NCBI GenBank assembly: GCA_044892525.1
Contig: CM097885.1
Span: 11,720,001 to 11,784,000 of the forward strand
Source of the DNA: Schmidtea polychroa
Taxonomy: Eukaryota
Direction: 5' to 3'
DNA: 64,000 nt
Position 1 is the stretch's first letter. The number at the start of each line of letters is the position of its first letter. Below the pieces are notes generated by a model. It was not told the DNA's origin and made no database searches. It saw only the letters and a list, made by a program, of their open reading frames with translations. This document shows, one piece after another, positions 10,685 to 48,251 of this stretch. The position numbers and the translations under genes are program-made.

Positions 10685-10701
10685 TATTTTAACATTTTAA
10701 A

Positions 10702-12084: not shown

Positions 12085-12095
12085 GTCGACAAGCC

Positions 12096-12908: not shown

Positions 12909-12923
12909 TTTATTTATTATAAA

Positions 12924-13535: not shown

Positions 13536-13557
13536 TACCATTTTTAATACCATAAAA

Positions 13558-14256: not shown

Positions 14257-14780
14257 GCCCCCCAAAAACGGAGTATAACATAATAACAATCGAACCCGGA
14301 GCTTATGAGATAAAAGATTTAAATAATATACTTTCTAAAAAAACAAATGGAGTCATTAAAATTAAAATGGATTTACCAACTTCAAAATGTATAATGACTT
14401 TAGAGAATATAGGAATTCATTTTCAAAATAATAGTTTCTTTAGAACAATTTTAGGATTTACACAAAACCATTATAGCACACCTGAAGTTACATCAGAAAA
14501 TATTATAAAAATAATAAATACAAACACAATAAATATTCATTGCGATTGTATAACTAGTTCTTATAATAATGGTAAACAAACAAATGTTTTATATTCCTTT
14601 CCCTCAAACACAGTTCCTATGGGATATAAAATAGTTGAAAGAATGAATCCTCCAAATTATTTACCTTTATGTAGAAAATATATAATGGATATTAATTTTA
14701 AAATTCTTAACCAATAAGGAGAATTGATTGATTTTAATGGAGAAGAGATTTCAATGTATTTACATTTGAAACAGGTTTGA
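14233..14780 (+). pseudogene. Minor capsid protein (penton), C-terminal part
   Basis: INTFSY...IEPGAYEI.D, INIHCDCI..SY.NG, P.YLP, then TAA 14715-14717 and GELIDFNGEEISMYLHLKQV*. Confidence 0.85.
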
Positions 14781-14804
14781 AGATTCATTTTAAATTATTA
14801 ATAA

Positions 14805-15782
14805 ATGAGTTCTTATATTCCTTGTAATAGAGGTGGTGGAACAATAAAAACAGGGTTTAATACAGAAGAAATATTAACTTTAACAGAAAATAAATATGTT
14901 AATGAAAGAGGTGATTCAATGAAAGGAGATTTAAATTTAAATGGACACAAGATAAAAGATTTATCTTTACCAATTGATGAAGGTGATGCTGCTAATAAAA
15001 ATTATACTGATTTAACAACAACAAGAATTGAAAGTTCATTAACAACAAAAATTGATTCAATGGAATCAAAGCTTAATAATATCGAACAACGATTTAATGA
15101 TAAATTTGACAAGTTACAAAGTCTGTTAACTGAACAAGTTGTAAAGTTAAATACTAGCATATTAAATTCTAAAGATAAACAAATTATGAATACTAAATTT
15201 AATACAATATATAATATAATAAATGAGATGATTACATCATTTAATAAAAGACTTTCAAATTTAGAGTCTCATACAACACATATTAACACCACACATAGTA
15301 TTAGAAAAAGAGCTGCTGAATTAGAACAGAATAAAACATTATTACCCCATACATATAAACATTTTATAGAACCAACTTTAATAACAACAAATAGTAAAGA
15401 ATGGAGTGTTTTTATGGTTGTAAAGATTATTGATCCTTATTTCTTTTTATTTGATGATGATAATGAAAGAATGAAATGGTTTGTGAAATGTGATTATAAT
15501 AGTAAGTTTGAAAAGGGTGATGTTATAATAAGTGGTTATGATTTAACACATGGATATTGGCATGATAAAACTGATTCACATAAAACACATAAAGTTAAAA
15601 GTAAGAATATTATTTTTAAAAGCACACTTGTACAATATATAGATTTAATATTTTATGAAAAAAAGGTTGATGTTGATGAAGTTCGTAAAGCATTGATGGA
15701 ATTGTATAAAGACATTCTCTCAACAAGAGTCTCTTATGATATCCGAGTATTGGTACCAGATAATAAAATTTTATTTTTTTAA
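14805..15782 (+). CDS. Fiber/adhesin-like protein
   Basis: GDSMKGDLNLNGHKIKDLSLP....DAANKNY trimeric fiber-type motif, coiled coil, distinct C-terminal domain. Confidence 0.6.
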   Translation: MSSYIPCNRGGGTIKTGFNTEEILTLTENKYVNERGDSMKGDLNLNGHKIKDLSLPIDEGDAANKNYTDLTTTRIESSLTTKIDSMESKLNNIEQRFNDKFDKLQSLLTEQVVKLNTSILNSKDKQIMNTKFNTIYNIINEMITSFNKRLSNLESHTTHINTTHSIRKRAAELEQNKTLLPHTYKHFIEPTLITTNSKEWSVFMVVKIIDPYFFLFDDDNERMKWFVKCDYNSKFEKGDVIISGYDLTHGYWHDKTDSHKTHKVKSKNIIFKSTLVQYIDLIFYEKKVDVDEVRKALMELYKDILSTRVSYDIRVLVPDNKILFF

Positions 15783-15790
15783 TTATTAAA

Positions 15791-16381
15791 ATGGAAGAAG
15801 TAAGAGAAGAAAAAGTTTACCCAGAATTGTCATCAGGATATTATTCCCCCAAACCTTCGGGACCTTCGGGAACTTCAGCTCCCACAGAACTTGAAATTAT
15901 GAGAGTAAAAGAATTTAAGTCAGAAACCTTACATTTAAAAGATTTATTAAAGCATTATAAAAAAATTAAAAATAGATGGAATAAAGGGAATACAGTTTTA
16001 AAAGTTATAGGTTATTCTTTAGGATTTGCATCTGCAATATTAACAGTTATTTTACCTATAACTTTACCAGTTTTAACACTTGCGCCAGTAATACTTGGAA
16101 GTATTTCTGTAGCTGATGGTTTCCTAACTGAAATAGTTTCACTATCTTATACTTCAAAAAAGAAAAGTTTATATCGTGAAGTTTGTTTATCAATAGAATT
16201 AGGAATCTCTAAATTATTTTTATTTCAATTAAAAGCTTTGGAAGATGGAATCTTAACTGATGATGAAATAATGAAATCAAATCAAATAATACAAGATATT
16301 AAAAATAATATTAATAGATTAAAAAGTGCTAATGTTATAACTAATGAATATTCTAAAAAATTAAACGGGAGAAATGGTTAA
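15791..16381 (+). CDS. Membrane protein with hydrophobic hairpin
   Basis: 196 aa, N-terminal VYPEL, ~45-aa hydrophobic segment flanked by basic helices. Confidence 0.65.
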   Translation: MEEVREEKVYPELSSGYYSPKPSGPSGTSAPTELEIMRVKEFKSETLHLKDLLKHYKKIKNRWNKGNTVLKVIGYSLGFASAILTVILPITLPVLTLAPVILGSISVADGFLTEIVSLSYTSKKKSLYREVCLSIELGISKLFLFQLKALEDGILTDDEIMKSNQIIQDIKNNINRLKSANVITNEYSKKLNGRNG

Positions 16382-16476
16382 AGAATTCTTATTTATAAAA
16401 TGGGTGTATTTTTAAAAAAGTAGATCAGGTTGCTATAGTTGCTTAAATTAATTGTCGACATTTTATTATTAAAAAA

Positions 16477-19400
16477 TTAAATATCGTTGAAAGCCAACCT
16501 TTGAATCATTAATTTATGATCTTTAAATTCTTTATCACTTAGACCTTTTATATATTCAGGATCAGTATTAAAATATTTAAGTTCTAAACATATAGGATTA
16601 AAAACTTGAGAATATAAAGGCTTCTCGATTTCTCTCTCGGGATAAATGATTTCAACATTATAAATATCAAGATCAGTAATTTTTGTATCATATAACTTAT
16701 TCAACTTTTCTAGATTTTTTATTATCGGTATTAAATTATTTCCAATAGGTAGAGTTGTCTTTAAATCACTTAGGATGAATCTCTTATCATCATAATTTGA
16801 TAATGATACTTTTTGAGATTCTATCAAGTGAATATCATGGTTTTCGCTTTTAATCTGATGCACTTCATCAATTTTATCTTTATGATTTGGATTCAATGTA
16901 TCTATATAATCTTGATGAGAAAGATTCTTTGCAACGGATTTCTGTATTCCTTTACATCTGTTATCCTTTACAGGTTTTTCTTCTTGTCCCTCTGGTCCTT
17001 TAGGGAATATAGGATATTTAAATGAAATAATTTCCTCTTTTTCTGGGGTTTTAAATATAATTTCTCGGGTTATAAATTCAGGGTTTTTAAATGTTTCGTA
17101 TGAATATTGTTTAGCACGAATAAATATTCCATTTTCTATAGGAGTAAAAGGTTTTTCATCTTTAAATGAAAATAATTCTCCAGTTGAATTTATTAAATTT
17201 GAAAGTATAGGATTTTCAGCTATATCTCTTTGTAAATCATGAGTTCTTATTGTTAAAAACATTGAATCTGTATCCATTGCATGCATTGATATATTAGAAC
17301 CATATATAGGTTGTAAGATGTTATAATATGTTTCATACATTTGTAATTTTGAAAGTTCTAAAATTGAAAACCCTATAAATATTGGTTTGTTGTATGTTTT
17401 ATCAAAATTCTTTAGTTCTACTGCAGTAAGATTTCCAGAAAATACTTGTGCGTTTTTAAATGTAGGCTTTCCTAGCATACGATTATAACGCTTAATGTCT
17501 TTGGTAGTATTTGTTAGGAGTTCAATATGAGTATATTTATCAACATTCTCCATTGTTTTCCCAAAGACTGAATTATTTAAAAGTTTATAATTATTATCTT
17601 TAAAAAGGTTACCTTCTCTTTTTGCAATGTTTCGACATCTAATGTTCTCCTCGATAAAAGCTTTCATGAATGGCCTCTGTTTAAATCTTATGACACTATG
17701 AACTTTTTTTAATATCATACCTCGTGAAAGATAAAATTGGAGGAGTCTATAGTGACAAAGATAAAACCTTCGATCTGTTTGATCACAAAGAAGTTTCATT
17801 GTTGGGGGTTTATCTTGTGAGATTTGCCATTCAGAAAGTTCGTTGATATCAATCTTTCTTCTTACAGGAGCTAAAGGGAAATATCTTGTTCCTGATTTTA
17901 TATCATCTGGATAAAATAAGTCACATTCTACAAAGTAACCTATTGGAGAATCTTTAGGTGTTGAAAGTATTTCTTTTATAAGAGTCTTTGATGATTCTAT
18001 TTCAATGAAATCACCCATTGGTAAATATTGAGTCATAATTCCTGAATATAAAGCTGTTGCATCTATATAAAGTATAAATAGAGGATTTTTCATTGTTTCT
18101 AATAATTCTTTTAATTCCTCATTGTTAATTTTTATATATGGATCATTAGGGTGTTTAGAGAGTCTTCTGCTAGTAGTTATTGCATTTCTAGCTTTTATTT
18201 CTCTATTCCCCATTACTGAAGAGACTCCTCCTCTAATGTTTGTTTTAATTAGATTAAACATATCGAGGTTAGTTAAAAGATCTATAATTTTATCAGCTTC
18301 TTCTATATTTGAAGTCCAAATGGTATATAATAAAGTATCCCAAGCTAAAGAGGGTGCTGTTATATAATTGTAAGGTTTAAGAACAAAAGATTTTGTAAAT
18401 TCTTCAAAGCAATCTGCTAGAATATAAACATCCAAGGATAAATACATACTTGTATATTCTCCTAAAGTTTTACACTTGAATAATTCCCACATTTTATTTG
18501 CTCGAGAATATTCTTGATTTGTAATATGATTTTTTTGAAGTTGTGAATAGAAATCTTCTTGGCTAGGAAGACTTGTTTCATTATATCTTTCAAACGAGTC
18601 AACATAGTCATAAGGATATATTCCTTTTGCTAAACATGTAGGATATTCTTCTAGAGGAATATTATTTTTTTCCAAGAATTCTCGAGTGATTTTAAAATCT
18701 TCTGGTTTCATTGTTTTAGCTATTCCATCTAGAGACATTTGAAGAAAGTTTAACGAGTCTATAAATTTTAATTTTCCATATTCAACTGATTTATATTTTT
18801 CCTTTGTAAGTCCTATAACTTTGAAAGAGTTTTTAGCATTTGCTGCTAAATGTTTAATAAATAGATGTATGTCATAACCAAAAAGATTATGAAATATAAC
18901 AGGTACAAATTTAGGAGTATGACAATTAAGATTACAATTTTTATGAGCTGCTCCTCGATAATTATTTTCCTTTTTTAAATGATCATGATCGAGGACTTTT
19001 ATATTCGGAGACTCTTCAAATGGTTGTTTACACATCCAACAGTTGGAAGTGTTTTCATATTCTTGTTGTTGTTGATTAGAAATATTTTGAGGATAGTTTG
19101 TTTTTAATACTTTAAATATTTCATGTTCTAGATCATTTATACTTTTAGTAAAATGATTCAAGACTTCTGTTTCTGAAATTCCTCGAAATGTATATTCTCT
19201 AGATTCTATGAGTTCAGGATAATTACTTTTAAATAATAATTTATAAGCAGATGGTAATTGTTTAGTTTTTTTAACACTATTAGGTTTATTCCTTTTTCTT
19301 AGAAAGGCTTTCATCCTCTCTGGTTTCATCTTCTCTCCTGAGGAGTTCTAGGAATCCATGAGTTTATTTTTCTCTATTATTTTAAAATATTGTTTAACCA

Positions 19401-19545: not shown

Positions 19546-19551
19546 TTTAAT

Positions 19552-20751
19552 AGTAGTAGGATGTGGGCCATCCAGATCATGTCCCCTCCAGATCACATAT
19601 ACCCCCTCCCCCCCCCGGGGAAAAAATTTTTTTTTTAAATAAAAGGTCAAGGTCATTTATTTTTTTTTAATTAAATTTTTTGTTTTAATTAAGTGATCCA
19701 GAGGGGACCTACTTTTTTTCTTCCCAAAAATTAATGTTCCTGCCAACAGATTTTATTGACCGATACCTCATCTTAAAGCTCAGTCCAAGACCTTTCGAAT
19801 GAGCTATAGGTATCATATATATCTTTAATAGTTTTAATGTTATTAACATTTAATGACCACCATCTTTTAAAGTTAAATTATTATTATTTGTCAAAATATT
19901 ATTAAGTGATCCAGAGGGAACCTACTTTTTGTCATCCCAAAGATTAATGTTCCCGCCAACATATTATATTGATCGATAGCTTATTTTAAAGCTCTGTGCA
20001 AGACCTTTCTAAGGAGATATAGATTTCTATAATATGATGACTCATCACATTTTTAAAACAAAGACAATGACTCGTCATATTTTTAGAACGATGCCTAATA
20101 TTTTTAGAATGATTACGTCATAATTTTAGAACGATGTCTATTATTTTTAGAATGATGCCTAATATTTTTAGAATGATTACGTCATACTTTTAGAACGATG
20201 CCTATTATTTTTAGAATGATGTCTAATATTTTTAGAACGATTACGTCATACTTTTAGAACGATGCCTAATATTTTTAGAATGATTACATCATACTTTTAG
20301 AACGATGCCTATTATTTTTAGAACGATGCCTTTTAATTTTAGAATGATGCCTAATATTTTTAGAACTATTACGTAATCGATGTCTAATATTTTTAGAATG
20401 ATGCCTAATATTTTTAGAATGATGCCTAATATTTTTAGAACTATTACGTAATCGATGTCTAATATTTTTAGAACGAAGCCTAATATTTTTAGAGCGATTA
20501 CGTCATACTTTTAGAACGATGCCTCTTATTTTTAGAATGATTACGTCATATTTTTAGAACGATGCCTAATATTTTTAGAACGATTACGTCATATTTTTAG
20601 AACGATGTCTAATATTTTTAGAACGATGCCAAATATTTTTAGAACTAATAATTTTTGTTTTAATTATCGAATACGTAAAAATATAATTTTGTTTAAATCG
20701 TTGATTACATATTATTATTTTCTAAGTTTTATTATTATTATTATTATTATA

Positions 20752-20786
<35 letters not shown>

Positions 20787-20849
20787 CTATCCGACAAAAT
20801 ATTCTGTCCCCCTATGGGTATTGCTCACAAAGGTACTACTCACACTCAA
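19552..20849 (+). repeat. Left TIR of element 2, including ~20-bp tandem array
   Basis: Reverse complement of 32008-33431; array of TTTTAGAA(C/T)GATGCCTAATA and TTACGTCA units at ~20080-20645. Confidence 0.9.
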
Positions 20850-20869
20850 TATGTCGTAAATTATTATTA

Positions 20870-20892
20870 TTATTATTTCAAATACAAGTTCA

Positions 20893-20961
<69 letters not shown>

Positions 20962-21076
20962 CAAAAAATCTAAAATATGGTTTACACACACACACACACA
21001 ACCCATTAACAATTATTTGTATCAATATTAGTGAAAACCTAAAATATCTTCTACACACATATACAACCCATTAAAC

Positions 21077-21138
<62 letters not shown>

Positions 21139-21251
21139 CAAAAAATCTAAAATATGGTTTACACACACACACACAACCCATTAACAATTATTTGTATCAA
21201 TATTAGTGAAAACCTAAAATATCTTCTACACACATATACAACCCATTAAAC

Positions 21252-21307
<56 letters not shown>

Positions 21308-21420
21308 CAAAAAATCTAAAATATGGTTTACACACACACACACGACCCATTAACAATTATTTGTATCAATATTAGTGAAAACCTAAAATATCTTCTACAC
21401 ACATATACAACCCATTAAAC

Positions 21421-21492
<72 letters not shown>

Positions 21493-21720
21493 GCAAATAT
21501 TAGTCAAAAACATAAAAACACACACTCAACCAATTAACAATTATTATTATCAATATTATTATTATTGCAAATACTAGTCAAAAACTTAAAATTTTTTTTT
21601 TACACACACACAACCCATTAACAATTATTATTATCAATATTAGTGAAAACCTAAAATATGGTTTACACACACACACACAACCCATTAAACTTTATTATTA
21701 TCATTATTATTATTATAATT
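20870..21720 (+). repeat. ~170-180 bp tandem repeat with AAT and CA tracts
   Basis: Three near-identical units CAAAAAATCTAAAATATGGTTTACACAC...CCCATTAAACTTT plus degenerate copies. Confidence 0.9.
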
Positions 21721-22066
21721 ATTATTATTATTAGTGAAAAAACCTTAAATAATTTTTACATACTAAGTTATGGGGTAGAGTATTATTATGTTTGCAGTAT
21801 TCTGCCTTTACAGGAAGTTGTCAATAAGGAGCGATAATTTTACACACACATTCTATATACACATACCTTGTTTAACATGGGTGTATATACTCATAGTTTA
21901 TCCGACAAAATATTCTGTCCCCCTATGGGTATTGCTCACAAAGGTACTACTCACACTCAACATATCGCAAGGGTATATTAATTAGGGTTAGTAAATAAAA
22001 CCTATCACACATACTATTTAAACTATAAAAATCAAGACAAGAGAGGACAAGGCAAAGTTTATGCAA

Positions 22067-22291
22067 TTATTATTGCCAGGCCTAATGAGCAGTGACCAAA
22101 TATCTGTGCCTGAAAGACACGGTGGATATTTGTTCGCGTCCACAAGGGTCGTCTGTGCCTCCCCCAAGTGGGGTCAAAAGAACCTGGGCATTATAGTTTT
22201 CCGTACGGAACATTACGCCTAGCATGGGTAGTCAACTACCAGCACATTCGAAACGTATAATTTCAAAATACATGCGTCATTGGCACTATAA
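22067..22291 (+). ncRNA. Candidate structured RNA with degenerate hammerhead-like frame
   Basis: GC-elevated island with multiple hairpins; CTAATGA 22082, GAAAC 22250, stem ACGTAT/ATGCGT, GTC 22276, TGCCA/TGGCA closing stem. Confidence 0.35.
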
Positions 22292-24905
22292 CCAAATTAA
22301 TTAATGTTTTCACTAACACAAATATATATTTACAGAGGCCTCCCACTAGTTGGATTACAACCGCCCACCACGACGATCAGCTTGTAAATATATATTAATT
22401 AAGGGATAAAGAGGACCCACCCAACCCTATTATATTTAATTTACAAATTTTTCTCGCTCTTCTGATGGTATTCTATCTCAAAATTATCATCTCCATCGGG
22501 CCATTTGGAATACATCTTGCGAATTGGACGTATTTCTTAGTTTCTGATGTGGCGTCAACTATCATTGCTAAAATTTATATTGATTTAAAAGCAATTAACT
22601 TACATTATCTAGCATTTTATCGTCACAGGCTTGATAAATTAGGCAACTGTTATTTGTGGTATACTTTTTCAATGTCATTTCCCACCATAAAACACAGATA
22701 CCTAAATATAATATATATATTTTAAAGAATTAATTCATGTCTTACATTAATAATAATATTCTTCAGGTAGTACTTTACAATATCTCATTGCTAAAACATC
22801 GGTTTTTCCCATTTTTCTTGACATTCGTTGAAAGTTTACATAATTTAAGTCTGATAATTCATGTTGAAGGACACCCACAATCAGCTAATTCATTTAAGAA
22901 ATCCAGAACATAGCAATGTTTCACCATTTTGTCTGGTTCATTTTCTTCTATAATTCATGTTTTAATAAGAAATTTCTAAATCCAGAACATAAGTCATTTA
23001 GTGTTTCACCATTTTATCTGGTTCATCTTCTTCATAATCATATAATTCATTTTCTTCATTACTAAGTAAAATAATTAAAATATTGTAGTAAATTCTTTAT
23101 TTACTTACTTTATGGATACTAAAACGAAAGAAATAAAGTTATATCAAAAGTATATTTAAATAAATTAAATTTAAATAATTTAATTTAGTTATTTAAAAAT
23201 ATTTAAACAATTTAGTTATTTAAGCATATTTAAACATTAACATTATTATATAGTATAATTTTATATAATATTATAATTTTATGTACACTTATATATCCTT
23301 CATTTAATTTTTTAAATTCAAAATTTATAATGAAGATTCTTTGAATTAAAAAATATTCTGTTAGTATTTCCAGGCAGTAAACAACGAATTCAATAATTAA
23401 AATCTTAATTTTCATGTTGTTAGGGTTGTGGCCAGAATTTAATCGCCATCTAATCGTTTGTTCTCAATTTCGCTCATTTTTGTTCAAAACATTCAGGTGA
23501 GTTGTTATCTGGAAAGTTTCTTTGAGCTCAGTTTTGTTAAAACACTCACGGTATTTTTGAGGGACGTGACACTGGGAATAAATTAACAATGGGTGGTCAT
23601 CCATACATGTTGTTGGTTTGAACTGTTGATTTATTTTAGAAATATGTATATTAAAAACATTTAAGGTATCATTCAGTAAAATAATATAGTATTTTTGAGT
23701 ATTTTTAGTTGATTTATAAATAACAGTATTTTGATATATCAATAAAGACCATATACTCCTAGTTTATCCGACAAAATATTCTGTCCCCCTATGGGTATTG
23801 CTAGCAAGGGTACTGGTCACATTCAACATGTCGCAATATTAATCATTTAGAAATTCTTAGGTAAGATAATCAGAAATTTGTGAATATTTTAAATGTAACT
23901 TTACACTTATGTCGAGCGACTAATTTATTGGTTAACTTTGTAGTCATTTAAAGCAAAAATTAATTTATTCATCTAATGTTCGTTACAATAGTTAATAATA
24001 TGAGAAAAACATGGTCATTATTCATTGATAATTTTAAATTCTTTATCATTTGGAGTAAATTTGTTTGAGGCAAAAATAATTAAAGGAGTCATAATAGAAA
24101 TATGGTTATCATTTAACCAAATAAGGTGCTTATTAGTTAAAAATATATATTATAAAGTAACAATTATTTTCTAATTTAATTAGATGATCATTAGACGTAA
24201 TATATCTTTGCGAGAAATTTAAGATGTTTGAGTAACCAAAACATGGATATTTTGTGCGATAAATTTATTAATAGTGCTTAATTTTCTCATTTTTAGTCAT
24301 TTAAAATAATATTTAGCAAAGGTAATTTAGCAAAATATCACTTATCCATCCGATAATAATATTCCTTCAATAGATTTTACCTTTAATATTCAACCGATTT
24401 AATTTCTAATTAAAATCATAAAATTCCTTCAATAAAGATCAATTTTCTTTAACCGTTGTCGATTTCCAACTTTTAAGTCAATATTTCTCAAGTTTTGTCA
24501 CTGATGTCCCCACAATGAATAAAATAACTTCTTAAGTAAAATAATTTAAAGCAATAACCTTTGATATCAATTATCTCTAAATATTTCAAATATTTCATTG
24601 TGAAAACCAAGTAAATTGATCATTAACCCTAAAAGACTTAATAAAACAGTGGATAATTAATAAAAAACTGGTTCTAAAACATAAATCTAAATTACTGTGC
24701 AATGACATTCATCACAACCTAATAAACCTCTAAAACGATATAATTTCACAGGAACTATTATTAATTCATAGCTAAATACTGACTATTTCCCTTTAAAATT
24801 TTACCAATAAGAACATTGTCGATTTAAATAGAGATTTCAAACATTTCCACCATAACCGATTCCTCACCAAATATTTCTACCATTTTAAACACCCCCTTAA
24901 AAATC

Positions 24906-24965
<60 letters not shown>

Positions 24966-25048
24966 TTAATAATAATAATAATAATAATATTAATAATATT
25001 AATAATAATAATAATAATAATAAAATAATAATAATATTAATAAAATAA

Positions 25049-25079
<31 letters not shown>

Positions 25080-25109
25080 AACAACAACAAAGGATACAAA
25101 ATACATTTA

Positions 25110-25493
25110 TTAATCATCAAATTTTTTATACAACAACCAAGCTAAACAATGTTGACCGCATGTTTGTGTCAAGGGATTTTGAAACATTGTTTTATTATAT
25201 ACAATAGGTTTCCCCATTGTTTGTAGTTTTGATACCAACAAAGCAGGGTAATAGAAACCCATAGGATCGAACACGAATATATTACTAGGTTTCACATATA
25301 TAGCAATCCAATGTTCTCCACCAAGATGAGACGATTGAGTATTGACGATTATGGCTTGATTATTGCTCAAATATGGGATTTTATCGAGAGGAAAAACTCC
25401 TACAAATTCATTTCCCAATATCTGTTTTCCAATTCTATTGACCTGAACAGAACTACTTTAATAAATTAAACAGTATTGAAAAACTTACTCCAT
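25110..25493 (-). CDS. Adenain-like protease, two exons (intron 25453-25488)
   Basis: ATG GA|gtaagt...tag|T TCT GTT CAG gives MDSVQVNRIGKQILGNEFVGVFPLD; GEHW, FDPMG, Q..LTQTCGQHC. Confidence 0.9.
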
Positions 25494-25521
25494 GACAACT
25501 TTTTGATGTTTCTGTATACAT

Positions 25522-26742
25522 TTATACTAGCACGGTTCTATTTGCAGTAATTTGAACTTCATTTTCAAATACTCCATATATAATAACATGTACCGGTTCA
25601 GTAATGGCCTTTGCAAACTTTATATCCAGTCGTAAATTCCCGTTTTGTGGTAATTGACTCTGATTTAAATCAAAATCGGGAGCTAGAACAAATGTGAAAA
25701 ATGGGTATTTGCTTTTAAATTCTTCAAGAGTTATTCCACAATTCAAGTTTTTATCTAAATAACCCAGATTTCTAACAATACTCTGCATATATGTCGCACA
25801 GTAATTATCATTCTCGAAATCTTGAGTATATGTTTCTCTATAATCAGTATTTTTCGATAAAGTCAATGAAGTAACACCAAAATTTTTGAAAATTGAGCTG
25901 GAAGCAGTATACGATCCATTATATTGCGTTTCACTTTGAAATGTTACCAGAATAAAATTAGGCATTCTTCTGTCACCAAATATTTGTTCTTTATAGAATG
26001 ATGAAGCACCTTTAGCAATAGCAAATTGTACAATTTCCTTTGTTTTTAAAGGATAAATTGCATGTTTTGAATTAAGCCCCAATTGATGACCAGCTAATAC
26101 TGACGGGTCTACTCGAACTCTTCTCACCAATAATTTTGCATCAACTAATTGACATATTGGTGCACCAGTTGCACTAGTAAGAGACAATGCAGAATCAGAC
26201 CTTTTCAGTCTAATATGTATATTAACTCCCGGTAGTAAATATTTCGGTTGATCCATAAAATCAAGTTGTAATGATGAGCACATAGTGAATACTTTTGAGC
26301 CTTTAACCCACTTTTTTCTTTCATCATCACTGCCATAACCCATAGGTGTAAGACATGTATTTTTAGTATCAGAATTGTAATTTAAAATAGTTTCTATTAA
26401 TGCCTTGTGAATGAATGTATTATTTCCGCCCTCAATCTTGATATTATTAAATCCCAACACTGCATCTTTAAACAGAGTATGAAACATGAAATTGTTCGGT
26501 ATTACATCTGTATTGGCATCCAAAACCTTTCTATCTTTATCTACAACCTTGATCTGAACAGTCAATAAAGTATCGTTCAAATCTAAATATTCAGTTTGCG
26601 AACCATTAATATAAAACTCGATATCATTTCTACTATCAGTAATTGAATTCATAGGAAAAACTTCCTCAAAGGCACCAAATTCTATTACTGCCTGGGGCGA
26701 CGGTCTATCAAATATACATAATTCGGATTTACCACAAATCAT
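25522..26742 (-). CDS. Major capsid protein
   Basis: 406 aa; SEL.IF..P..Q, YLDL.DT.L, Q.KYLLPGV, G.LRLDIKF, QI...R.V Maverick capsid motifs. Confidence 0.9.
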   Translation of the reverse strand: MICGKSELCIFDRPSPQAVIEFGAFEEVFPMNSITDSRNDIEFYINGSQTEYLDLNDTLLTVQIKVVDKDRKVLDANTDVIPNNFMFHTLFKDAVLGFNNIKIEGGNNTFIHKALIETILNYNSDTKNTCLTPMGYGSDDERKKWVKGSKVFTMCSSLQLDFMDQPKYLLPGVNIHIRLKRSDSALSLTSATGAPICQLVDAKLLVRRVRVDPSVLAGHQLGLNSKHAIYPLKTKEIVQFAIAKGASSFYKEQIFGDRRMPNFILVTFQSETQYNGSYTASSSIFKNFGVTSLTLSKNTDYRETYTQDFENDNYCATYMQSIVRNLGYLDKNLNCGITLEEFKSKYPFFTFVLAPDFDLNQSQLPQNGNLRLDIKFAKAITEPVHVIIYGVFENEVQITANRTVLV

Positions 26743-27101
26743 TTTGCAAATATAGTTCCATGTCCTTTCATTCGTTTGTTTATACGCGATATTCCATGCC
26801 CTTTACGTTTTGGCGCTGGGACTGGAGGTGTATCTTTTTGAAACATACCAGCAACTCCAGGTAGAACCTTCCCTAACTCAGCTAAAGCATTTGTTTTTAG
26901 GGATGGTAATATTTTCTGTTCATTCATAATCACATCTTTTGCAGTTTTCATGCCAAAACTACCAATACGTTTAAGAATGGGAAGTGCAAATCTCCCTATT
27001 GTTTTTAACCAACCTGATCCATACTGTTTACCAATAAAATATGGTAATTCACCACCAGATTGGCTATCACTATACATACTAATAATATCGGAATTAGCCA
27101 T
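26739..27101 (-). CDS. Small basic core-like protein
   Basis: Q.GG...F.G.Q.G.G motif, amphipathic helix, K/R tail; position between penton and MCP. Confidence 0.75.
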   Translation of the reverse strand: MANSDIISMYSDSQSGGELPYFIGKQYGSGWLKTIGRFALPILKRIGSFGMKTAKDVIMNEQKILPSLKTNALAELGKVLPGVAGMFQKDTPPVPAPKRKGHGISRINKRMKGHGTIFAK

Positions 27102-28161
27102 CTACTTTACGAAAATGTAGTGTCAAATGAGTTTTTGAGTCTTTTGGGAAGTTTATAAGTTTTCCACTATCGTCACGAATATTTATTTCTATATTGTTTA
27201 TACATGAGCTTGAAATTGGTAAATACATGGGATTATCTATATTTATATTGACAACTTCATCATGTTCATATTTTCCAATCCACACCGATTTCAATAGAGG
27301 AACACTGGAATCACCAACTATTATAGGCTCAATAATATTAGTATATATGAACATTTGTTGATGATGTTCAAGTATTCTTGGTTTACGTATACCAGCCGAT
27401 TTTTCCCGATATTGCTGCTTCTCTAATCCAAGTGTATTTGTCAAATTTTTATCAAATGTAACTTCGCAAATGTCATCATTCAAACTGAAGGTAAATAACA
27501 ATTCTTTCACAATGTCCAAACTTTTAAATATGTGTGAACAATTATACTTTAAATATTTAAGTAACACATCAAGTTTATCAATATATAATTCGTCAGCGAA
27601 GGTGAATGATTCTTCAACTTCATTATTATACGACACTGAAATTTTGATTTCTTCTCTCATTACACTGTTTGCTTCAAATAGATCAAAGCGTAATAAATAT
27701 TCTGTTTCCATAACTTCATTTTTCAACTTATTGCAACCCATTCGTCTGGCATCTTCAATATATTCGAATGTTATTGTAAATGGTTTAAAATCACAACTGA
27801 TATTTAATCCATCCTTGTAAAACATAGTGCAATGCTGATCTAATATTTGATTCGGAATATGATATGTTTTATCATAATTACTGATAATAAAGATACCACT
27901 ACATGTTTTCATAGCATTCCTTTTGAAATCAATCTTACATTGACTATAAAATGGGAATGTATTGTACACGAATGTAAAATCTTGCAGTGCAACTTCCCAG
28001 TCACCATTTAAAGAAATCGGATTCTGGAGATTGACCATGAATTTACTGGCTTGATTATCTGGATGAATAAGCGGGCAACTATTGCTTGGTAAAATAGTAT
28101 AAAAATTCACTTTACTAGATCCTTTTCTGATATCCATGATGGGTTTTGATAACCATGCCAT
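27094..28161 (-). CDS. Minor capsid protein (penton)
   Basis: FY.ILPSNS, L.GDWEVAL, FIYTNIIEP..VGD..VPLL, IRDD.G..I.F, LHFR; exact start uncertain. Confidence 0.9.
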   Translation of the reverse strand: MAWLSKPIMDIRKGSSKVNFYTILPSNSCPLIHPDNQASKFMVNLQNPISLNGDWEVALQDFTFVYNTFPFYSQCKIDFKRNAMKTCSGIFIISNYDKTYHIPNQILDQHCTMFYKDGLNISCDFKPFTITFEYIEDARRMGCNKLKNEVMETEYLLRFDLFEANSVMREEIKISVSYNNEVEESFTFADELYIDKLDVLLKYLKYNCSHIFKSLDIVKELLFTFSLNDDICEVTFDKNLTNTLGLEKQQYREKSAGIRKPRILEHHQQMFIYTNIIEPIIVGDSSVPLLKSVWIGKYEHDEVVNINIDNPMYLPISSSCINNIEINIRDDSGKLINFPKDSKTHLTLHFRKVDG

Positions 28162-29162
28162 TTGACATAGTATTGTTTATCCTTGCCTTTATTTTTAGTT
28201 TTCAATATCTTCTGAATTCTAAATACTTTTGGGGGAGGAATAACTTGTAATTCTTGTTCATAAAATTTTCCTTGTACAATATTGTTATCATCGTCTTTGA
28301 TGACATACATTACAGGATTCTGTTTAGTATTTATTTTTGAAATTACAAAGACTTCATCACTCCAATTTGTATCGAAATTTTTAATAAATGGTGATGCACT
28401 AATTTTACTAATTCTAACATGGTCACCTACTTTATATTTCGGTTTTGTAATTTTTTCAGGTTTTTTAGAATAGATTGTTTTTGACGTGATATCAATCGGC
28501 CTTAATCCATTCAGTCCTTGATGTGATGAGTGATTATAACTGGTTATTATTTTTGGTAAAACCAATACCCATTTTTTATTACCTTGATGCATGAATAATT
28601 TCTTTAATCTATCTCTCAAAGTTCGGTTAAATCTTTCAACATGAGCAGCTTTGTATTGAGAATGTACTGAGTAATGGTTTATTTTCAATTTAATGAGGAT
28701 TTGCTTGACTTTACTGTTGTAGAATTCTTTACCTAAAATAATAATAATAATAATAAAAATAATAATATTAATACCTAAATCAGTTTGCAAGTTTTTAGGA
28801 TATCCGTCTTTAAATAAATGATTAACAGCTTTGGACATTTCATCTGCAGATTTTGCCTTGACGGGTATTGCTCGGGCAAACCGACTGAATACATCAATAC
28901 ATGTTAAAATATATTTATACCCATTGTTAATTTTCGAATAGGGTATCATCTCCATCAAATCCATTTGCCATAAATCATTTATTCCATATGTTTTATAAGC
29001 TCTTGTTGGGAATCGTTTCTGCATTGGTTTGTTCAAACTGTACGCAAGCTGGTCTGATAACCACTTCTGAGTTTCCTTTTTCGAATTCGGAACTCTTTTC
29101 CTTAATTTTGCCACTCCACCAAAACCGGCTTCGTCTTCCGGGTTCGTCCAAATCTTCTCCAT
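28107..29162 (-). CDS. rve integrase with C-terminal chromodomain (intron 28733-28774)
   Basis: WQMDL, IDVFSR, TDLG|KEFYN restored by removing a 42-nt GT-AG intron, VERFNRT, YYVKWHGY..PSW. Confidence 0.92.
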   Translation of the reverse strand: MEKIWTNPEDEAGFGGVAKLRKRVPNSKKETQKWLSDQLAYSLNKPMQKRFPTRAYKTYGINDLWQMDLMEMIPYSKINNGYKYILTCIDVFSRFARAIPVKAKSADEMSKAVNHLFKDGYPKNLQTDLGINIIIFIIIIIILGKEFYNSKVKQILIKLKINHYSVHSQYKAAHVERFNRTLRDRLKKLFMHQGNKKWVLVLPKIITSYNHSSHQGLNGLRPIDITSKTIYSKKPEKITKPKYKVGDHVRISKISASPFIKNFDTNWSDEVFVISKINTKQNPVMYVIKDDDNNIVQGKFYEQELQVIPPPKVFRIQKILKTKNKGKDKQYYVKWHGYQNPSWISEKDLVK

Positions 29163-29220
29163 TACAACAAGAAGATTTAATATTAAATTTAATGTCTGGT
29201 AATGAAGGATTAGCACCCAT
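28993..29220 (-). CDS. Overprinted small ORF with N-myristoylation signal
   Basis: MGANPS...SSCC; ATG 4 nt after the upstream stop; kept open in element 3 (47982). Confidence 0.5.
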   Translation of the reverse strand: MGANPSLPDIKFNIKSSCCNGEDLDEPGRRSRFWWSGKIKEKSSEFEKGNSEVVIRPACVQFEQTNAETIPNKSL

Positions 29221-29223
29221 TGT

Positions 29224-29712
29224 TTATGATCGACTTCCTATTATTCCACCTAATAATGATATTGCTAAAGGTATCAATGCACCGATAAATCCCCCTTGTT
29301 GTTTATATATAATTTTTCTCATTTGTTGACGATTTTTATTATTTACTAATGATAGCAAAGGTTTCCTATGTTTACTCAATAATTGCTTTTTAGATTTACT
29401 GATTTTAATCTTGCCTTTGACTACTTTAAGTATAATATCGAGTAAATCATCGACAACATAATTTGGAAAAGATTGCAAAATACTGTTTCTTTTCATACTT
29501 GGTGCCTTTAACAATGTATTGAAAAACGGGAAACTCCGATGATTTTTAACAACTTTTACTTTCTTAGTGGTTTTACTTTTTGGTTTAGGATTTTTCGAAA
29601 TAAGATTCATTGCAGGAAAATTTTCTGTAATAAGATCTTTAGATGGAGTATAACTAGTTGTTGGTGGAACTTTTGGTTGTTTTTTACCCGATATCCTTGT
29701 TTTTGAAAACAT
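29224..29712 (-). CDS. Basic core/membrane-active protein
   Basis: K-rich; ends Q.GGFIGALIPLAISLLGG, typical of Maverick proteins next to the ATPase. Confidence 0.75.
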   Translation of the reverse strand: MFSKTRISGKKQPKVPPTTSYTPSKDLITENFPAMNLISKNPKPKSKTTKKVKVVKNHRSFPFFNTLLKAPSMKRNSILQSFPNYVVDDLLDIILKVVKGKIKISKSKKQLLSKHRKPLLSLVNNKNRQQMRKIIYKQQGGFIGALIPLAISLLGGIIGSRS

Positions 29713-29725
29713 GATTTATATGTTT

Positions 29726-30364
29726 TCAACTTTGTTTTGAACTTTGTTTATATACCATGGCACCTTTTGGGTTGAAAATATCTGTTTTTACCCGTATATC
29801 ATCAGGGCATTGTTGTGTGAAATCGAGAAATATATACCCATGCGGTATTTTCGTGGCATCTTGAAATGCACTGATAAGAAAATTACGGTTATTAGGGTAT
29901 GCTTGTCGTCCAAGAAAATCAATGACAGTTGCATCTCTAGGATTCTTGAAAATAACTAAATATTGTACATTTAAATTACGTGTTCGATGTGCACCACCTT
30001 GATGAAATAGATTTTGTGTTATGAAAATAACTGTTACACCAACATGTCTGCTGATTTTTGTGAATAAATTATTAAAGTCCTTTTCTTTATTGGCTTCTTG
30101 ATACAAATCATCGATAATGATGACATCATCTTTCTTCAAACGACTTGACCAGTTTTTATCAAAGCCCTTTACTATTTTCATGTTTTTCAACTGACAGAAA
30201 CTTGATTGCGTCAATCCGTGTTCTTCGTCGGCGCCCCTATGCCAATAAATATTGTTGAATTTTGTTTTAAACAAATTTGATTTTAGTAATTTACAAACAA
30301 ATAAAGTTTTCCCGCTACCACTTGGACCAACGATTTGGTATACTGCATCATTTCGTAATTCCAT
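29726..30364 (-). CDS. DNA packaging ATPase
   Basis: GPSGSGKT, IIIDDL, SRH, ITQN, FKNPRD. Confidence 0.93.
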   Translation of the reverse strand: MELRNDAVYQIVGPSGSGKTLFVCKLLKSNLFKTKFNNIYWHRGADEEHGLTQSSFCQLKNMKIVKGFDKNWSSRLKKDDVIIIDDLYQEANKEKDFNNLFTKISRHVGVTVIFITQNLFHQGGAHRTRNLNVQYLVIFKNPRDATVIDFLGRQAYPNNRNFLISAFQDATKIPHGYIFLDFTQQCPDDIRVKTDIFNPKGAMVYKQSSKQS

Positions 30365-30469
30365 TTTTTAAAATTTAAACTATATAATTATTGTTTATAT
30401 TGATAATTTAAATGAACTCTGTTTTTAAATACCTATATATATCAAAGTTTTTAAAATTATTTCATTAAA

Positions 30470-30934
30470 ATGCTTTCAAATATAAATTACAGGGCAAAAA
30501 CTGATGTATCAAAAATGGTATTTCCAATAGGGAAACCACAACAACTTATCAATAGAAGTAATAAATATCCAATAATATATTTCAAAACTGGTAAATGTAG
30601 AATTATGGGGTGTAAGGAAATAATCAAAGCTAGTGAATATAATGTTTATGATTTAGAAATACAATCGATAACCGTAACTTCCGATATAGGTTTTTCTTGT
30701 AATTTAAATAAATTAGCTAAATTAATACCATGCTTTTATGAACCAGAATTATTTCCAGCTTTGAGATATATAAAATATAACCCTATGTGTGTAAATATAT
30801 TCGCTAGCGGTAAGATAGTAATTCTTGGAATAAAAAATATTGATTACAAAAGTATAGTTGATAATATCATATCTGAAATTAAATCAATAATTGAAGGAAA
30901 AGAATTTTTAGATTTTTTATTATCACTTAATTAA
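30470..30934 (+). CDS. TATA-binding-protein-like protein
   Basis: Two TBP half-repeats: IYFKTGKCRIMGCK and YEPELFPAL.Y...VNIFASGKIVILG.K. Confidence 0.85.
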   Translation: MLSNINYRAKTDVSKMVFPIGKPQQLINRSNKYPIIYFKTGKCRIMGCKEIIKASEYNVYDLEIQSITVTSDIGFSCNLNKLAKLIPCFYEPELFPALRYIKYNPMCVNIFASGKIVILGIKNIDYKSIVDNIISEIKSIIEGKEFLDFLLSLN

Positions 30935-31042
30935 TTATTTATCATTCAATTAAAACAAAAACATACTGCAATCTGATTGGATGATAAACAATAGTCATAG
31001 GTATAAAAACCCTGTACCATTTCATTTTAATCATAATTCACA

Positions 31043-31462
31043 ATGACCAAGAAAATTTCAAGCACTGAAAAACCAAAAGTAGTTCCAGAACTTGTACAAC
31101 CTGTTCAAATGTTCCACAACTACAAAATGTATTTTTTAAAAGAAGAAATCAATATGAAATTGGTGTCACCGATCAAGCTAATTCCTACCCAATTTCAATT
31201 CTTAACCGGCACGCTTTCAATGTTAGATATTAAAACCATAGATGATGTTTTCAAAAGGTTGAATACGAATCTATCATGCAATCAAAATGCATTTTTCAAC
31301 AACCGATATGCAAAATTTTATGATTCCTTTGATGAAATCAGTTTCAAAGAAAACGAAAATTGGTATATAACAATTACAATCCAAGGATATAAAGTTGATA
31401 ATAATGATGTGTATTCTCCAATTTGGAAAATTATGTCTGCTAGACTTTCACAGTTATTTTAA
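31043..31462 (+). CDS. Hypothetical protein conserved with element 3
   Basis: 139 aa, homologue at 45040-45459; ATTGG and TATAAAA upstream, AATAAA downstream. Confidence 0.75.
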   Translation: MTKKISSTEKPKVVPELVQPVQMFHNYKMYFLKEEINMKLVSPIKLIPTQFQFLTGTLSMLDIKTIDDVFKRLNTNLSCNQNAFFNNRYAKFYDSFDEISFKENENWYITITIQGYKVDNNDVYSPIWKIMSARLSQLF

Positions 31463-31558
31463 TGTTGTATTTAATAAATGTATTTAGTCATATTTGTTTT
31501 CGCTTATATTCTATATTTTCTATAAACAAATATATACTATAGTTTTAAAATACTAATA

Positions 31559-31917
31559 ATGACTACAGAAAAAGGTTAATATGATTAGTTAATTATTGAA
31601 TTATTTAATATTTAGAATTTATAATAAACTTTTTATTGGAAAAATTAGCAGAAATATCTGGTGTGAAAATGGCGGATATATTATCTGTTACAAACGCATT
31701 AAATATAGACTGGGTAGCAGAGAGTGAAGATTCGGAATTTGATGAAACAGATGAAGAAAACACTCAAGATGATGAGGAAAGCATTCAAGAAATTGATGAA
31801 CCTATGGAGGAATTTACGGATACTGAACCATGTGTATATAGGGATTGTATAGATCATGTTGTTGAAAATGTTATGAACTGTGGAGATGATGAATGTGAAT
31901 GTGTTAATAAATTTTAG
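31559..31917 (+). CDS. Acidic protein with Cys tail, two exons (intron 31575-31615)
   Basis: Splicing gives MTTEKEFIINFLLEKLAEISG...; the same intron position is present in element 3. Confidence 0.7.
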
Positions 31918-32007
31918 TGTATATTTAAAGAATAATATTTAGAATTTAGAAAGTTTTGTCTTGAATATTTTTACCAGTAACTTTGTGAGTAGTACATTTG
32001 TAACTTG

Positions 32008-32072
32008 TTGAATGTGAGTAGTACCTTTGCGAGCAGTACCCATAGGGGGACAGAATATCTTGTCGGATAGAT

Positions 32073-32142
<70 letters not shown>

Positions 32143-32143
32143 C

Positions 32144-32221
<78 letters not shown>

Positions 32222-33431
32222 CTTAGAAAATAATAATATGTAATCAACGATTTAAACAAAATTATATTATTACGTATTCTATAATTAAAACAGAAGAATT
32301 ATATAATCAATGATTTAAACAAATTATATAATCATCGATAATTAAAACAAAATTATTAATTCTAAAAATATTAGGCATCGTTCTAAAATTATGACGTAAT
32401 CGTTCTAAAAATAAGAGGCACCATTCTAAAAATATTTGGCATCGTTCTAAAAGTATGACGTAATCGCTCTAAAAATATTAGGCATCGTTCTAAAAGTATG
32501 ACGTAATCGCTCTAAAAATATTAGGCTTCGTTCTAAAAATATTAGACATCGATTACGTAATAGTTCTAAAAATATTAGGCATCATTCTAAAAATATTAGG
32601 CATCATTCTAAAAATATTAGACATCGATTACGTAATAGTTCTAAAAATATTAGGCATCATTCTAAAATTAAAAGGCATCGTTCTAAAAATAATAGGCATC
32701 GTTCTAAAAATATTAGGCATCGTTCTAAAAATATGACGTAATCAATCTAAAAATATTAGACATCATTCTAAAAATAATAGGCATCGTTCTAAAAGTATGA
32801 CGTAATCATTCTAAAAATATTAGGCACCATTCTAAAAATAATAGACATCGTTCTAAAATTATGACGTAATCATTCTAAAAATATTAGGCATCGTTCTAAA
32901 AATATGACGAGTCATTGTCTTTGTTTTAAAAATGTGATGAGTCATCATATTATAGAAATCTATATCTCCTTAGAAAGGTCTTGCACAGAGCTTTAAAATA
33001 AGCTATCGATCAATATAATATGTTGGCGGGAACATTAATCTTTGGGATGACAAAAAGTAGGTCCCCTCTGGATCACTTAATAATATTTTGACAAATAATA
33101 ATAATTTAACTTTAAAAGATGGTGGTCATTAAATGTTAATAACATTAAAACTATTAAAGATATATATGATACCTATAGCTCATTCGAAAGGTCTTGGACT
33201 GAGCTTTAAGATGAGGTATCGGTCAATAAAATCTGTTGGCAGGAACATTAATTTTTGGGAAGAAAAAAAGTAGGTCCCCTCTGGATCACTTAATTAAAAC
33301 AAAAAATTTAATTAAAAAAAAATAAATGACCTTGACCTTTTATTTAAAAAAAAAAATTTTTTCCCCGGGGGGGGGAGGGGGTATATGTGATCTGGAGGGG
33401 ACATGATCTGGATGGCCCACATCCTACTACT
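32008..33431 (-). repeat. Right TIR of element 2
   Basis: Outer ~550 bp almost identical to the left TIR; array and AAT lengths differ. Confidence 0.9.
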
Positions 33432-34682
33432 TTTAATCATAGAGTTTTTAGTTGTTGAATAATGAAGACATCTTTTACATGTTCCTCCTCCACTAGTTGG
33501 ATTCTCTGGTGATGTAAAAGCTTGAAAGTTTTTTATTAAAACATAATGTTGATTATTTTGTTGTTCCAAGATTAAAAGATATATCTCCCTAGTGTTATCC
33601 TGGGGTTCGTTATCTCTAACTTCATAATCTGAAATATAAATTGGAATAATTTCTCTGCTATTAACATGTTTCCCTTTAACACGTTCATAAATATTAATTT
33701 TAAGATTATTTAAACTTTCAAATTTTGGAATGTCTTCTAGTTTCATTGGATGTTTGAATCCTTTGGGAAATATTAATTCATTTTCATATTGTTTGTATTT
33801 TGAAACTCTTTGAGGGTTTGATTCTTGAGGGTGTAAATGTGCAAGTATTGACCAGACTAAACATTTGTTATCATTATTCTGTATGTTTATAACATTTTTA
33901 GATTTAAAGGGTGTAGGAATATAAGATTTAGGATTAGATGGTAATCCTCTCCAATAATCAATCACTAAAGTTTGGAAAGAGTTGAATACTAAGTTTGAAT
34001 CTCCTAATTCATTTTCAACCTCTTCTTGTTTTGCTTCTACTGCTTGAATTATTTCTTTGATGGTTTTATCAAATCCTTTAGTTGAAAATAAATATTTAAA
34101 GGGTATTCCAATTTCAACATCTAAAGGTGTTGTCTTTTCTTCTGCTCCTCGCCAGTATTTTGCTTTGATTATAATTTTATATTTTATAACATTATACCTT
34201 GTCGGTTTTTAATTTTTTAAAGCTTCAGTGAAAGAATTTTTAATATTTTTTTTATTTTTATTTATATATTCTCCAGGAGTTATAGGTCCATTGATTTCTA
34301 ATTGAAATTCATCTACATGATTAAAATCATCCCAGTTATATTTTTCTCTTTCAACATGATCAGGTTCTCCTTTTGAATGACATTCCTCATCGTCAGAATT
34401 TTGTTTTTTATTTTTACATTCTTTTATATGTTCTAAATAATAGAAATTTACTTTTGTTGAAAAGTTACAGTGAGAACATGTAAATATTTCTCTATTTTTC
34501 CCGATACAATTTTCAAAATGTTTATTATATCCAGAATGTAGAAATCTTCCTTTACATTTAGGACAAAGTTTTGAATTTGTATCATTAAGATTATTTTCTT
34601 TTAATAAATGAGCTTTCGATTTTAAGTGAGAAATCAATCCAGTTTTATTTTTAAAAACTTTATTACAAATATTACAATTCAT
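33432..34682 (-). pseudogene. pPolB of element 1, N-terminal part
   Basis: Zn fingers (CNICNK...HLKSKAH), in-frame TAA 34209-34211, NIQNNDNKCLVWSI, HYVLIK, CKRCL; joins in frame to 19545 after removing element 2. Confidence 0.9.
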
Positions 34683-46263: not shown

Positions 46264-46728
46264 TTAATTAAGTGATAATAAAAAATCTAAAAATTCATTT
46301 CCTTCAATTATTGATTTAATTTCAGATATGATATTATCAACTATACATTTGTAATCAATATTTTTTATTCCAAGAATTACTATCTTACCGCTAGCGAATA
46401 TATTTACACACATAGGGTTATATTTTATATATCTCAAAGCTGGAAATAATTCTGGTTCGTAAACACATGGTATTAATTTAGCCAATTCATTTAAATTACA
46501 AGAAAAACCTATATCGGAAGTTACGGTTATCGATTGTATTTCTAAATCATAAAGATTATATTCACTAGCTTTGATTATTTCCTTACACCCCATAATTCTA
46601 CATTTGCCTGTTTTGAAATATATTATTGGATATTTTTTACTTCTATTGATGAGTTGTTGTGGTTTCCCCATTGGAAATACCATTTTTGATACATCAGCTT
46701 TTGCCCTGTAATTTATATTTGAAAGCAT
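46264..46728 (-). CDS. TBP-like protein
   Basis: Intact homologue of 30470-30934. Confidence 0.85.
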   Translation of the reverse strand: MLSNINYRAKADVSKMVFPMGKPQQLINRSKKYPIIYFKTGKCRIMGCKEIIKASEYNLYDLEIQSITVTSDIGFSCNLNELAKLIPCVYEPELFPALRYIKYNPMCVNIFASGKIVILGIKNIDYKCIVDNIISEIKSIIEGNEFLDFLLSLN

Positions 46729-46832
46729 TTTAATGAAATAATTATAAAAACTCTGCTATATATAGTTATTTTAAAAAGGAGTTCATTTAAATTATCAATA
46801 TAAACAATAATTATATAGTTTAAATTTAAAAA

Positions 46833-47470: not shown

Positions 47471-47483
47471 AAACACATAAATC

Positions 47484-47978: not shown

Positions 47979-48039
47979 ACAATGGGTGCTAATCCTTCAT
48001 TACCAGACATTAAATTTAATTTTAAATCTTCTTGTTGTA

Positions 48040-48204
48040 ATGGAGAAGAATTGGACGAACCCAGAAGACGAAGCCGGTTTCGGTGGAGTGGCAAAATTAA
48101 ACAAAAGAGTTCCGAATTCGAAAAAGGAAACCCAGAAGTGGTTATCAGACCAGCTTGCGTAATATCAGTAATCTAGCCGACTCCAATTTCTATCCATCAA
48201 TTTA

Positions 48205-48251
<47 letters not shown>

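Follow-up and report, generated by a model that had tools for sequence, protein, structure and literature searches.

A minimal TATA-binding protein of an animal Polinton clade and its candidate late-promoter box

Viral proteins that mimic the TATA-binding protein (TBP) are already known, as is a TBP label in a Polinton-related virus. KSHV ORF24 and the other TBP mimics of beta- and gammaherpesviruses have, as described in the text of PMC12529657, a polar DNA face and a non-canonical late box of their own (TATTWAA); ORF24 itself is a 752-aa protein that keeps all four DNA-kinking phenylalanines, lacks the acidic residues that contact TFIIB and works within a six-protein viral complex. The TBPs of large dsDNA viruses, according to the main text of Ravarani et al. 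(PMC7221094), in which the word "polinton" does not occur, lack the eukaryotic N-lobe regulator surface, vary in the TFIIB-contacting stirrup (its glutamate pair is about 40% conserved) and mostly come with a co-evolving viral TFIIB. For Polinton relatives, the legend of Fig. 5 in Starrett et al. 2021 (PMC8502044) labels a TBP-like gene; this is a legend label only, the text giving no structure, residue, selection or promoter analysis and the text form of the supplement not containing "TBP". The term is likewise absent from the main text of three Polinton papers (PMC10748475, 10.64898/2026.06.19.733378 and 10.64898/2026.10.13.758929). Apart from the Starrett legend, our literature searches turned up nothing on a TBP in Polintons or on an ATAAAC box, although figures, bioRxiv supplements, Repbase and subscription journals may name the gene.

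The protein described here is encoded in a 64,000-nt window of the Schmidtea polychroa genome (contig CM097885.1, positions 11,720,001 to 11,784,000), by which we mean the whole stretch of DNA that was analysed. An open frame of 154 codons at 30470-30934 (+) within the transposable element that we call element 2 is matched by the Pfam TBP family (PF00352, E 1.4e-15, above cut-off), in agreement with a preliminary description of this DNA. That description had also placed an intact gene in element 3, and the second copy (46264-46728, -) is indeed intact and 94.8% identical to the first. Its wording of a two-repeat TBP core stands for the fold and the complete C-terminal repeat but not for the N-terminal repeat, which is reduced, and Pfam recognises, above cut-off in both cases, a single TBP stretch per copy (residues 62-135 at 30470-30934 and 62-125 at 46264-46728). 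The product of the gene at 30470-30934 is thus a TBP-fold protein in reduced form and not simply a two-repeat core.

The AF2 model of the viral TBP, computed from 85 sequences (the query and 84 of 97 matches, short and partial ones having been dropped), has a pLDDT of 95.7 and forms a saddle over the whole length of the protein. It matches yeast TBP (residues 66-240) with Z 12.5 and an rmsd of 2.7 over 143 residues, the next non-TBP row in the structure comparison reaching Z 6.3, and Foldseek gives E 2.4e-9; the fold match that had been proposed as a check is therefore present. Like the cellular TBPs of yeast (7o4i), Sulfolobus (1mp9) and Methanocaldococcus (2z8u), the viral protein has the saddle, a full C-repeat and the YEPELFP stirrup; unlike them, it has in its N-repeat neither helix H1, nor the long helix H2, nor an equivalent of Phe99. 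Its N-repeat, about 30 residues shorter than in cellular TBP, consists of four strands and one 4-residue helix. The Asn-to-Phe spacing of this repeat is 34 in the window protein, with a family mode of 37, against 45-47 in canonical TBPs, and the stretch that holds H2 (Gly to Asn159) is 19, with a mode of 21, against 34-35 in the 8 of 40 canonical sequences in which it is measurable. More distant relatives retain shortened helices, and the helix loss therefore looks stepwise in these alignments. Among large-virus TBPs in BFVD, the best structural matches are 16-22% identical.

Yeast numbering was anchored on Table 1 of PMC12529657 and on PMC1636458, and equivalences follow from sequence alignment rather than atomic superposition. 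Seven residues are invariant in all 85 aligned sequences: Glu91, Glu93, Phe38, Phe95, Phe111, Arg44 and Asn109. In a larger set of 157 sequences, the stirrup glutamates that contact TFIIB (PMC7221094, main text) are kept in 151/157 (Glu91) and 155/157 (Glu93); since this set was filtered on the Cys107-Asn109-Phe111 motif, only the 85-sequence counts are valid for those three residues. Of the surfaces singled out for checking, that for TFIIB is therefore retained, whereas the eukaryotic N-lobe patch for Mot1, TAF1, TFIIA and Brf1/2, a basic patch that the text of Ravarani et al. (PMC7221094) places mainly on H2, is absent together with the helix. Three of the four DNA-kinking phenylalanines (yeast F99, F116, F190 and F207) are kept, as Phe38, Phe95 and Phe111, and at F99 the alignment places Lys22 or Pro23 instead. 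The equivalents of Asn69 and Pro191 are also kept and that of Arg196 is lost; with both Phe99 and Arg196 missing, binding to DNA may be weak without a partner. Elsewhere, the family carries its own near-constant residues: V71 is replaced by Asn (Asn6) in 131/142, V122 by Arg (Arg44) in 152/153, T124 by Met in 155/156, N159 by Ser in 146/157 and I194 by Arg (Arg99) in 145/157. The DNA-facing equivalents of V71, V122, V161, I194 and L205 are all polar, and ORF24 is likewise polar at V122, V161 and L205, as tabulated in PMC12529657. The positions changed in the altered-specificity yeast mutant TBPm3 are I194, V203 and L205 (PMC1636458), and all three differ in the viral TBP.

Element 2 spans 19552-33431 (13.9 kb), with AGTAGT termini, inverted repeats of about 1.4 kb and a 6-bp target duplication. 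Polinton/Maverick elements are defined at their termini by AG...CT ends, and element 2 combines such ends with terminal inverted repeats and a 6-bp duplication. Its gene set is that of a Polinton, namely a retrovirus-like (rve) integrase, an A32-type ATPase, an adenoviral-type protease (recognised on a sister copy) and a capsid protein (assigned indirectly); a protein-primed polymerase B had no match in element 2 and is carried by sister copies and by 7 of 81 related loci. The viral TBP gene stands head-to-head with the A32-like packaging ATPase (29726-30364, -; 212 aa; Pfam Pox_A32, E 2e-7), with a 105-bp gap between them. Within this region lie an ATAAAC box upstream of the ATPase, where no co-oriented gene precedes it (30393-30398, -), and a canonical-looking, putative promoter of the TBP gene (30434-30466, +), composed of a TATA-like box (30434-30441) and a TCATT initiator-like word (30462-30466). 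Behind the ATPase on the minus strand follow a basic protein of 162 aa that may be a virion core precursor (29224-29712; homologues in 9/81 loci, no Pfam match), with its box inside the ATPase 3' end (29746-29751, -), and the integrase with a chromodomain (28107-29162; Pfam matches to rve at E 1.1e-7 and to Chromo at E 4.5e-4, each narrowly below cut-off), with a box at 29222-29227 (-). A 355-aa putative minor capsid protein, so named from its position (27094-28161, -; no Pfam match), has its box within the integrase 3' end (28175-28180, -), and a 120-aa protein (26739-27101, -) contains the box (26778-26783) for the next gene. That gene encodes the putative major capsid protein (25522-26742, -; 406 aa), which has no Pfam match and whose profile weakly matches an ORF beside the double-jelly-roll match of element 1. 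The adenovirus-type protease-like frame (25116-25577, -) closes the series; Peptidase_C5 was found on a sister copy, and stops lie in the 5' part of the frame in both window copies. The preliminary description had pictured TBP as transcribed divergently from a block reaching from ATPase to protease: the divergence is true of the window but local, the two genes being on the same strand in 23 of the 25 metagenome loci that have both.

Downstream of the viral TBP gene, a 139-aa protein (31043-31462, +; AF2 pLDDT 89) is likely an OB-fold single-stranded DNA-binding protein (SSB). Its best Foldseek match, a weak one, is the phage Enc34 SSB (probability 0.98, E 0.022), and it had no match in Atlas. 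With this predicted fold, the protein was rejected as a candidate substitute for TFIIB or TFIIA. A distant TBP-bearing element (L087) has two SSB-like genes (8306-8758 and 12943-13410), one with a box and one without, as well as KilA-N and phospholipase A2-like genes.

Several further features of the window deserve record. Element 2 (19546-33437 with its duplication) lies within the polymerase gene of an unrelated Polinton, element 1, so that pieces of that polymerase flank it left and right; its 6-bp target duplication has stayed intact. Element 1 (7895-19329), which has no TBP, shows TAAA(A)TG at the start codon in 8 of 11 listed genes, a motif reminiscent of the poxvirus late promoter that may be an A-rich start context only. 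In element 3, ATPase and integrase (46830-48878) are broken and TBP is intact. Within the element 2 integrase, 42 in-frame nucleotides with many ATT repeats (28732-28773, -) start with GT and end with AG and may represent either a small intron or the insertion of a microsatellite; the element 3 integrase has a longer insert at the same site. Finally, a 106-aa ORF at 43998-44318 matches the Bcl-2 family weakly (E 0.0046, below the cut-off) and has a 63% identical relative in another subfamily.

The element has hundreds of copies in this animal genome, and relatives of its TBP gene neighbour Polinton genes in metagenomes. The 781-Mb genome yielded 4,146 first-look TBP candidates, and the best 150 of these are all at least 99% identical and stop-free, 53 of them being identical; intact copies of nearly identical sequence thus number at least 150. 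With a relative as query, two further, diverged subfamilies (145 and 170 aa) came to light, which are 57-63% identical to the window protein. Database searches recovered 97 relatives among 117 candidates, mostly of 145-160 aa, as well as 118 representatives with E no higher than 1e-10, cellular TBPs among them. Across 81 related loci, mostly short contigs, the gene is accompanied by the ATPase in 25, the 139-aa gene in 21, the integrase in 20, the capsid gene in 11 and the polymerase in 7, and the viral TBP is a stable feature of one large Polinton clade. It lies outside the Polinton core set, as had been stated, with no TBP match in 20 other elements. In a quick tree, 32 Polinton-type rows fall on one side of a branch and 33 cellular and large-virus rows on the other (SH-aLRT 100); from these 32 + 33 rows no donor of the gene could be identified. 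Capture from a host gene in this genome was rejected, the host TBP-like loci grouping with cellular TBPs (two of six loci placed). These six cellular TBP-like loci (L172-L177) include two that are intronless and divergent.

The viral TBP is under purifying selection, which answers the proposed check against neutral evolution. The pair of window copies gives a dN/dS of 0.31 (6 synonymous and 7 non-synonymous changes over 140 codons, Fisher p 0.039). Comparisons of subfamilies give 0.16-0.27, and 23 of 37 metagenome pairs (dS 0.2 or more) give 0.08-0.49; values above 1 occur in two near-identical pairs, each with at most 2 synonymous changes. Constraint is weaker for TBP (0.16-0.31) than for the ATPase or the capsid gene (0.04-0.10; ATPase 0.04-0.09). 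Between subfamilies, dS reaches 1.2-2.1 in TBP against 0.27-0.59 in the adjacent ATPase, and is also raised in the 355-aa gene (0.84). The excess over the ATPase points to an exchange of old TBP alleles between similar elements. At six loci (L198-L201, L204-L205), TBP alleles about 60% identical sit between ATPases that are 94-96% identical, and the 355-aa gene is mosaic too.

The morphogenesis genes of these elements share an upstream word. In de-duplicated 90-nt upstream regions, with shuffle and antisense controls, ATAAAC precedes the ATPase in 23/23 (antisense 0; shuffle mean 2.0, maximum 6), with 19 of 24 sites lying 30-37 nt from the ATG. It also precedes the putative capsid gene in 9/9, the 355-aa gene in 10/12, the integrase gene in 9/15 and the 120-aa gene in 2/7. 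An unbiased ranking returns ATAAAC as the top hexamer (54/67 regions against 5.7 expected; antisense 0/67), and the box persists across loci of 28-44% GC. The preceding base is C or T in 51/56 sites, so the box is not AATAAA, and the following base is A in 48/56; only 11 of 57 boxes have an initiator-like TCAY behind them. The TBP gene behaves differently: ATAAAC occurs upstream of it in 5/49 (shuffle 3.1) and TATAWAWR in 21/49 (shuffle 6.25, maximum 10), and CCAAT and TCATT words are enriched. The SSB-like gene has ATAAAC in 3/7 (shuffle maximum 3). Many boxes lie within the 3' end of the preceding gene, where their codons are fixed, in 19/20 cases in ATPase tails versus 20/59 in gene bodies; Ile-Asn is written ATA AAC in 8/8 cases in the tails of the gene before the capsid versus 13/153 in gene bodies. 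At boxes within coding sequence it is therefore the DNA that is constrained.

Over whole loci, a box at -70 to -11 is found at 53 of 124 ORFs in 12 TBP-bearing elements (exceptionally at 1/6 polymerase and 1/12 TBP ORFs) versus 4 of 233 ORFs in 20 Polinton-like elements without a TBP match, four large-virus-type TBP loci (box in 1/38 ORFs) being set aside. These counts are not independent, the elements being related, and the TBP-less controls come from other clades and include many partial contigs; box and TBP co-occur within one clade, and the controls therefore do not separate TBP from ancestry. Scans of viral contigs with ATPase and capsid alignments, meant to supply TBP-less controls of the same clade, found no relative. 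Four contig runs cover parts of the element, without start sites or strand.

No TFIIB match was found among the 35 ORFs of the window, and genome-wide the TFIIB family amounts to 21 matches from 32 candidates, against some 4,100 first-look TBP candidates. By these searches the elements carry no recognisable TFIIB, a very remote homologue being possible; a same-genome viral partner, as in the TBP-TFIIB pairs of giant viruses, was found neither in the window ORFs nor among the 32 genome-wide candidates. Thirteen TFIIB-family matches with open frames of 301-310 aa form two clusters (C3: 38.2-39.1 Mb and C1: 23.8-24.2 Mb; L188, L189), and the one clustered gene that was read is intronless and full-length TFIIB-like. 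This clustered host expansion could be a source of partners for the viral TBP. The best-matching named relatives of the TFIIB of this genome are flatworm proteins, in line with a likely flatworm host.

We consider it probable that the viral TBP is the late-gene factor of the element, which would read YATAAAC(A) and recruit host TFIIB and RNA polymerase II. YATAAAC is shared by packaging and putative capsid genes, and the viral TBP therefore likely switches those genes on; "late" is assigned to them from gene identity. Transcription of the viral TBP gene would come first, by host TBP acting at the ordinary CCAAT/TATA/initiator promoter of that gene. The product would then read the box. In the 3' half of the TATA box, which the N-repeat of TBP contacts, a C is disfavoured, as described for yeast TBPm3 (PMC1636458); in the ATAAAC box, a C stands at position 7, under the remodelled N-repeat, which with Arg44, Asn6 and no Phe99 equivalent may accept it. 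Docking of host TFIIB would proceed through Glu91 and Glu93, and because helix H2 is lacking, the protein would escape Mot1/BTAF1, TAF1 and probably TFIIA. Such an early-to-late switch, with its putative binding steps, is the simplest joint reading of the box, the TBP promoter and the residues. The suggestion that the protein redirects host RNA polymerase II to late promoters thus gains from the box at morphogenesis genes, the kept TFIIB glutamates and the failure to find an element-borne TFIIB, with the binding itself predicted. KSHV ORF24 may serve as a functional precedent for a viral TBP that reads its own late box: the herpesvirus-type trait of an own box before late genes has its counterpart in the gene-class, strand and distance bias of ATAAAC before presumably late genes. 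The likeness is one of fold only and we claim no homology; the Polinton protein has 154 aa, keeps the TFIIB glutamates and has no viral partner among those sought. The DNAs named for comparison with YATAAAC are TATAAAAG and random A/T DNA.

Other readings account for parts of this evidence. The box could be read by a host factor (TBP/TFIID, a TBP paralogue or a forkhead protein) while the viral TBP does something else, which we regard as unlikely. Wild-type TBP has been crystallised on the C(-25) TATA variant, which has C at position 7 (1qn3), and host TBP may therefore use the box; there are six host TBP-like loci to choose from, and the co-occurrence of box and viral TBP is confounded by clade. 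Yet host TBP would tolerate a C rather than select for it, and the box is fixed in strand (antisense 0/23) and in distance and persists over loci whose GC content ranges from 28 to 44%. Forkhead proteins have the consensus RYAAAYA, and their sites would be expected to include GTAAAC and to occur in either orientation; of the 67 regions, 3 contain GTAAAC and 54 contain ATAAAC, and none has an antisense site. Less likely still is a decoy, the dominant negative of the preliminary description, which would sequester TFIIB or Brf1 or occupy host TATA boxes and so damp host transcription. The TFIIB stirrup is the best-kept surface, one kinking phenylalanine and both N-repeat helices are gone, and allele exchange between near-identical elements could reflect conflict, all of which would suit a sponge; a sponge, however, needs no new near-invariant residues on the DNA face (Arg44, Asn6, Arg99), leaves the box unexplained and sits uneasily with thousands of candidate copies in a viable host genome.

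That the viral TBP depends on a second factor of viral or helper-virus origin, as in the late complexes of herpesviruses and giant viruses, and makes no direct use of host TFIIB seems to us highly improbable. Known viral TBPs do act with viral partners, as far as the texts of PMC7221094 and PMC12529657 go, and several small ORFs near the TBP gene belong to no family; against this, the host-type Glu-Pro-Glu stirrup is invariant, the most constant family-less neighbour (21/81 loci) folds like an SSB, and none of the 35 window ORFs matches TFIIB. We give very little credence to a non-transcriptional role in DNA bending, for packaging, replication or integration, with the box as a packaging, processing or polyadenylation-like signal. 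It would fit the position of TBP, which neighbours the ATPase in 25 of 81 loci and the SSB-like gene in 21, and the many boxes at the 3' end of a preceding gene, but ATPases without any co-oriented gene upstream (in the host's own subfamilies and at locus L097) have the box as well, the base before it is mostly a pyrimidine and it is thus not AATAAA, and DNA bending has no need of TFIIB glutamates.

The ATAAAC box provides a short sequence marker for candidate late promoters across the clade, and the viral TBP is a natural deletion experiment in which the TFIIB stirrup is kept, the N-repeat helices are dropped and all three TBPm3 positions are changed. A dedicated TBP with a matching box bears on the question of how animal Polintons, with no helper virus, time the expression of their capsid genes, and it offers a direct test of a productive viral cycle. 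We suggest, tentatively and with somewhat more doubt than belief, that one large clade of animal Polintons may run a two-stage, virus-style transcription programme around a single switch, a TBP of 150 residues without regulatory helices that reads YATAAAC, uses host TFIIB directly and has its alleles swapped like cassettes between elements. If true, no orthogonal system by which RNA polymerase II recognises promoters would be smaller.
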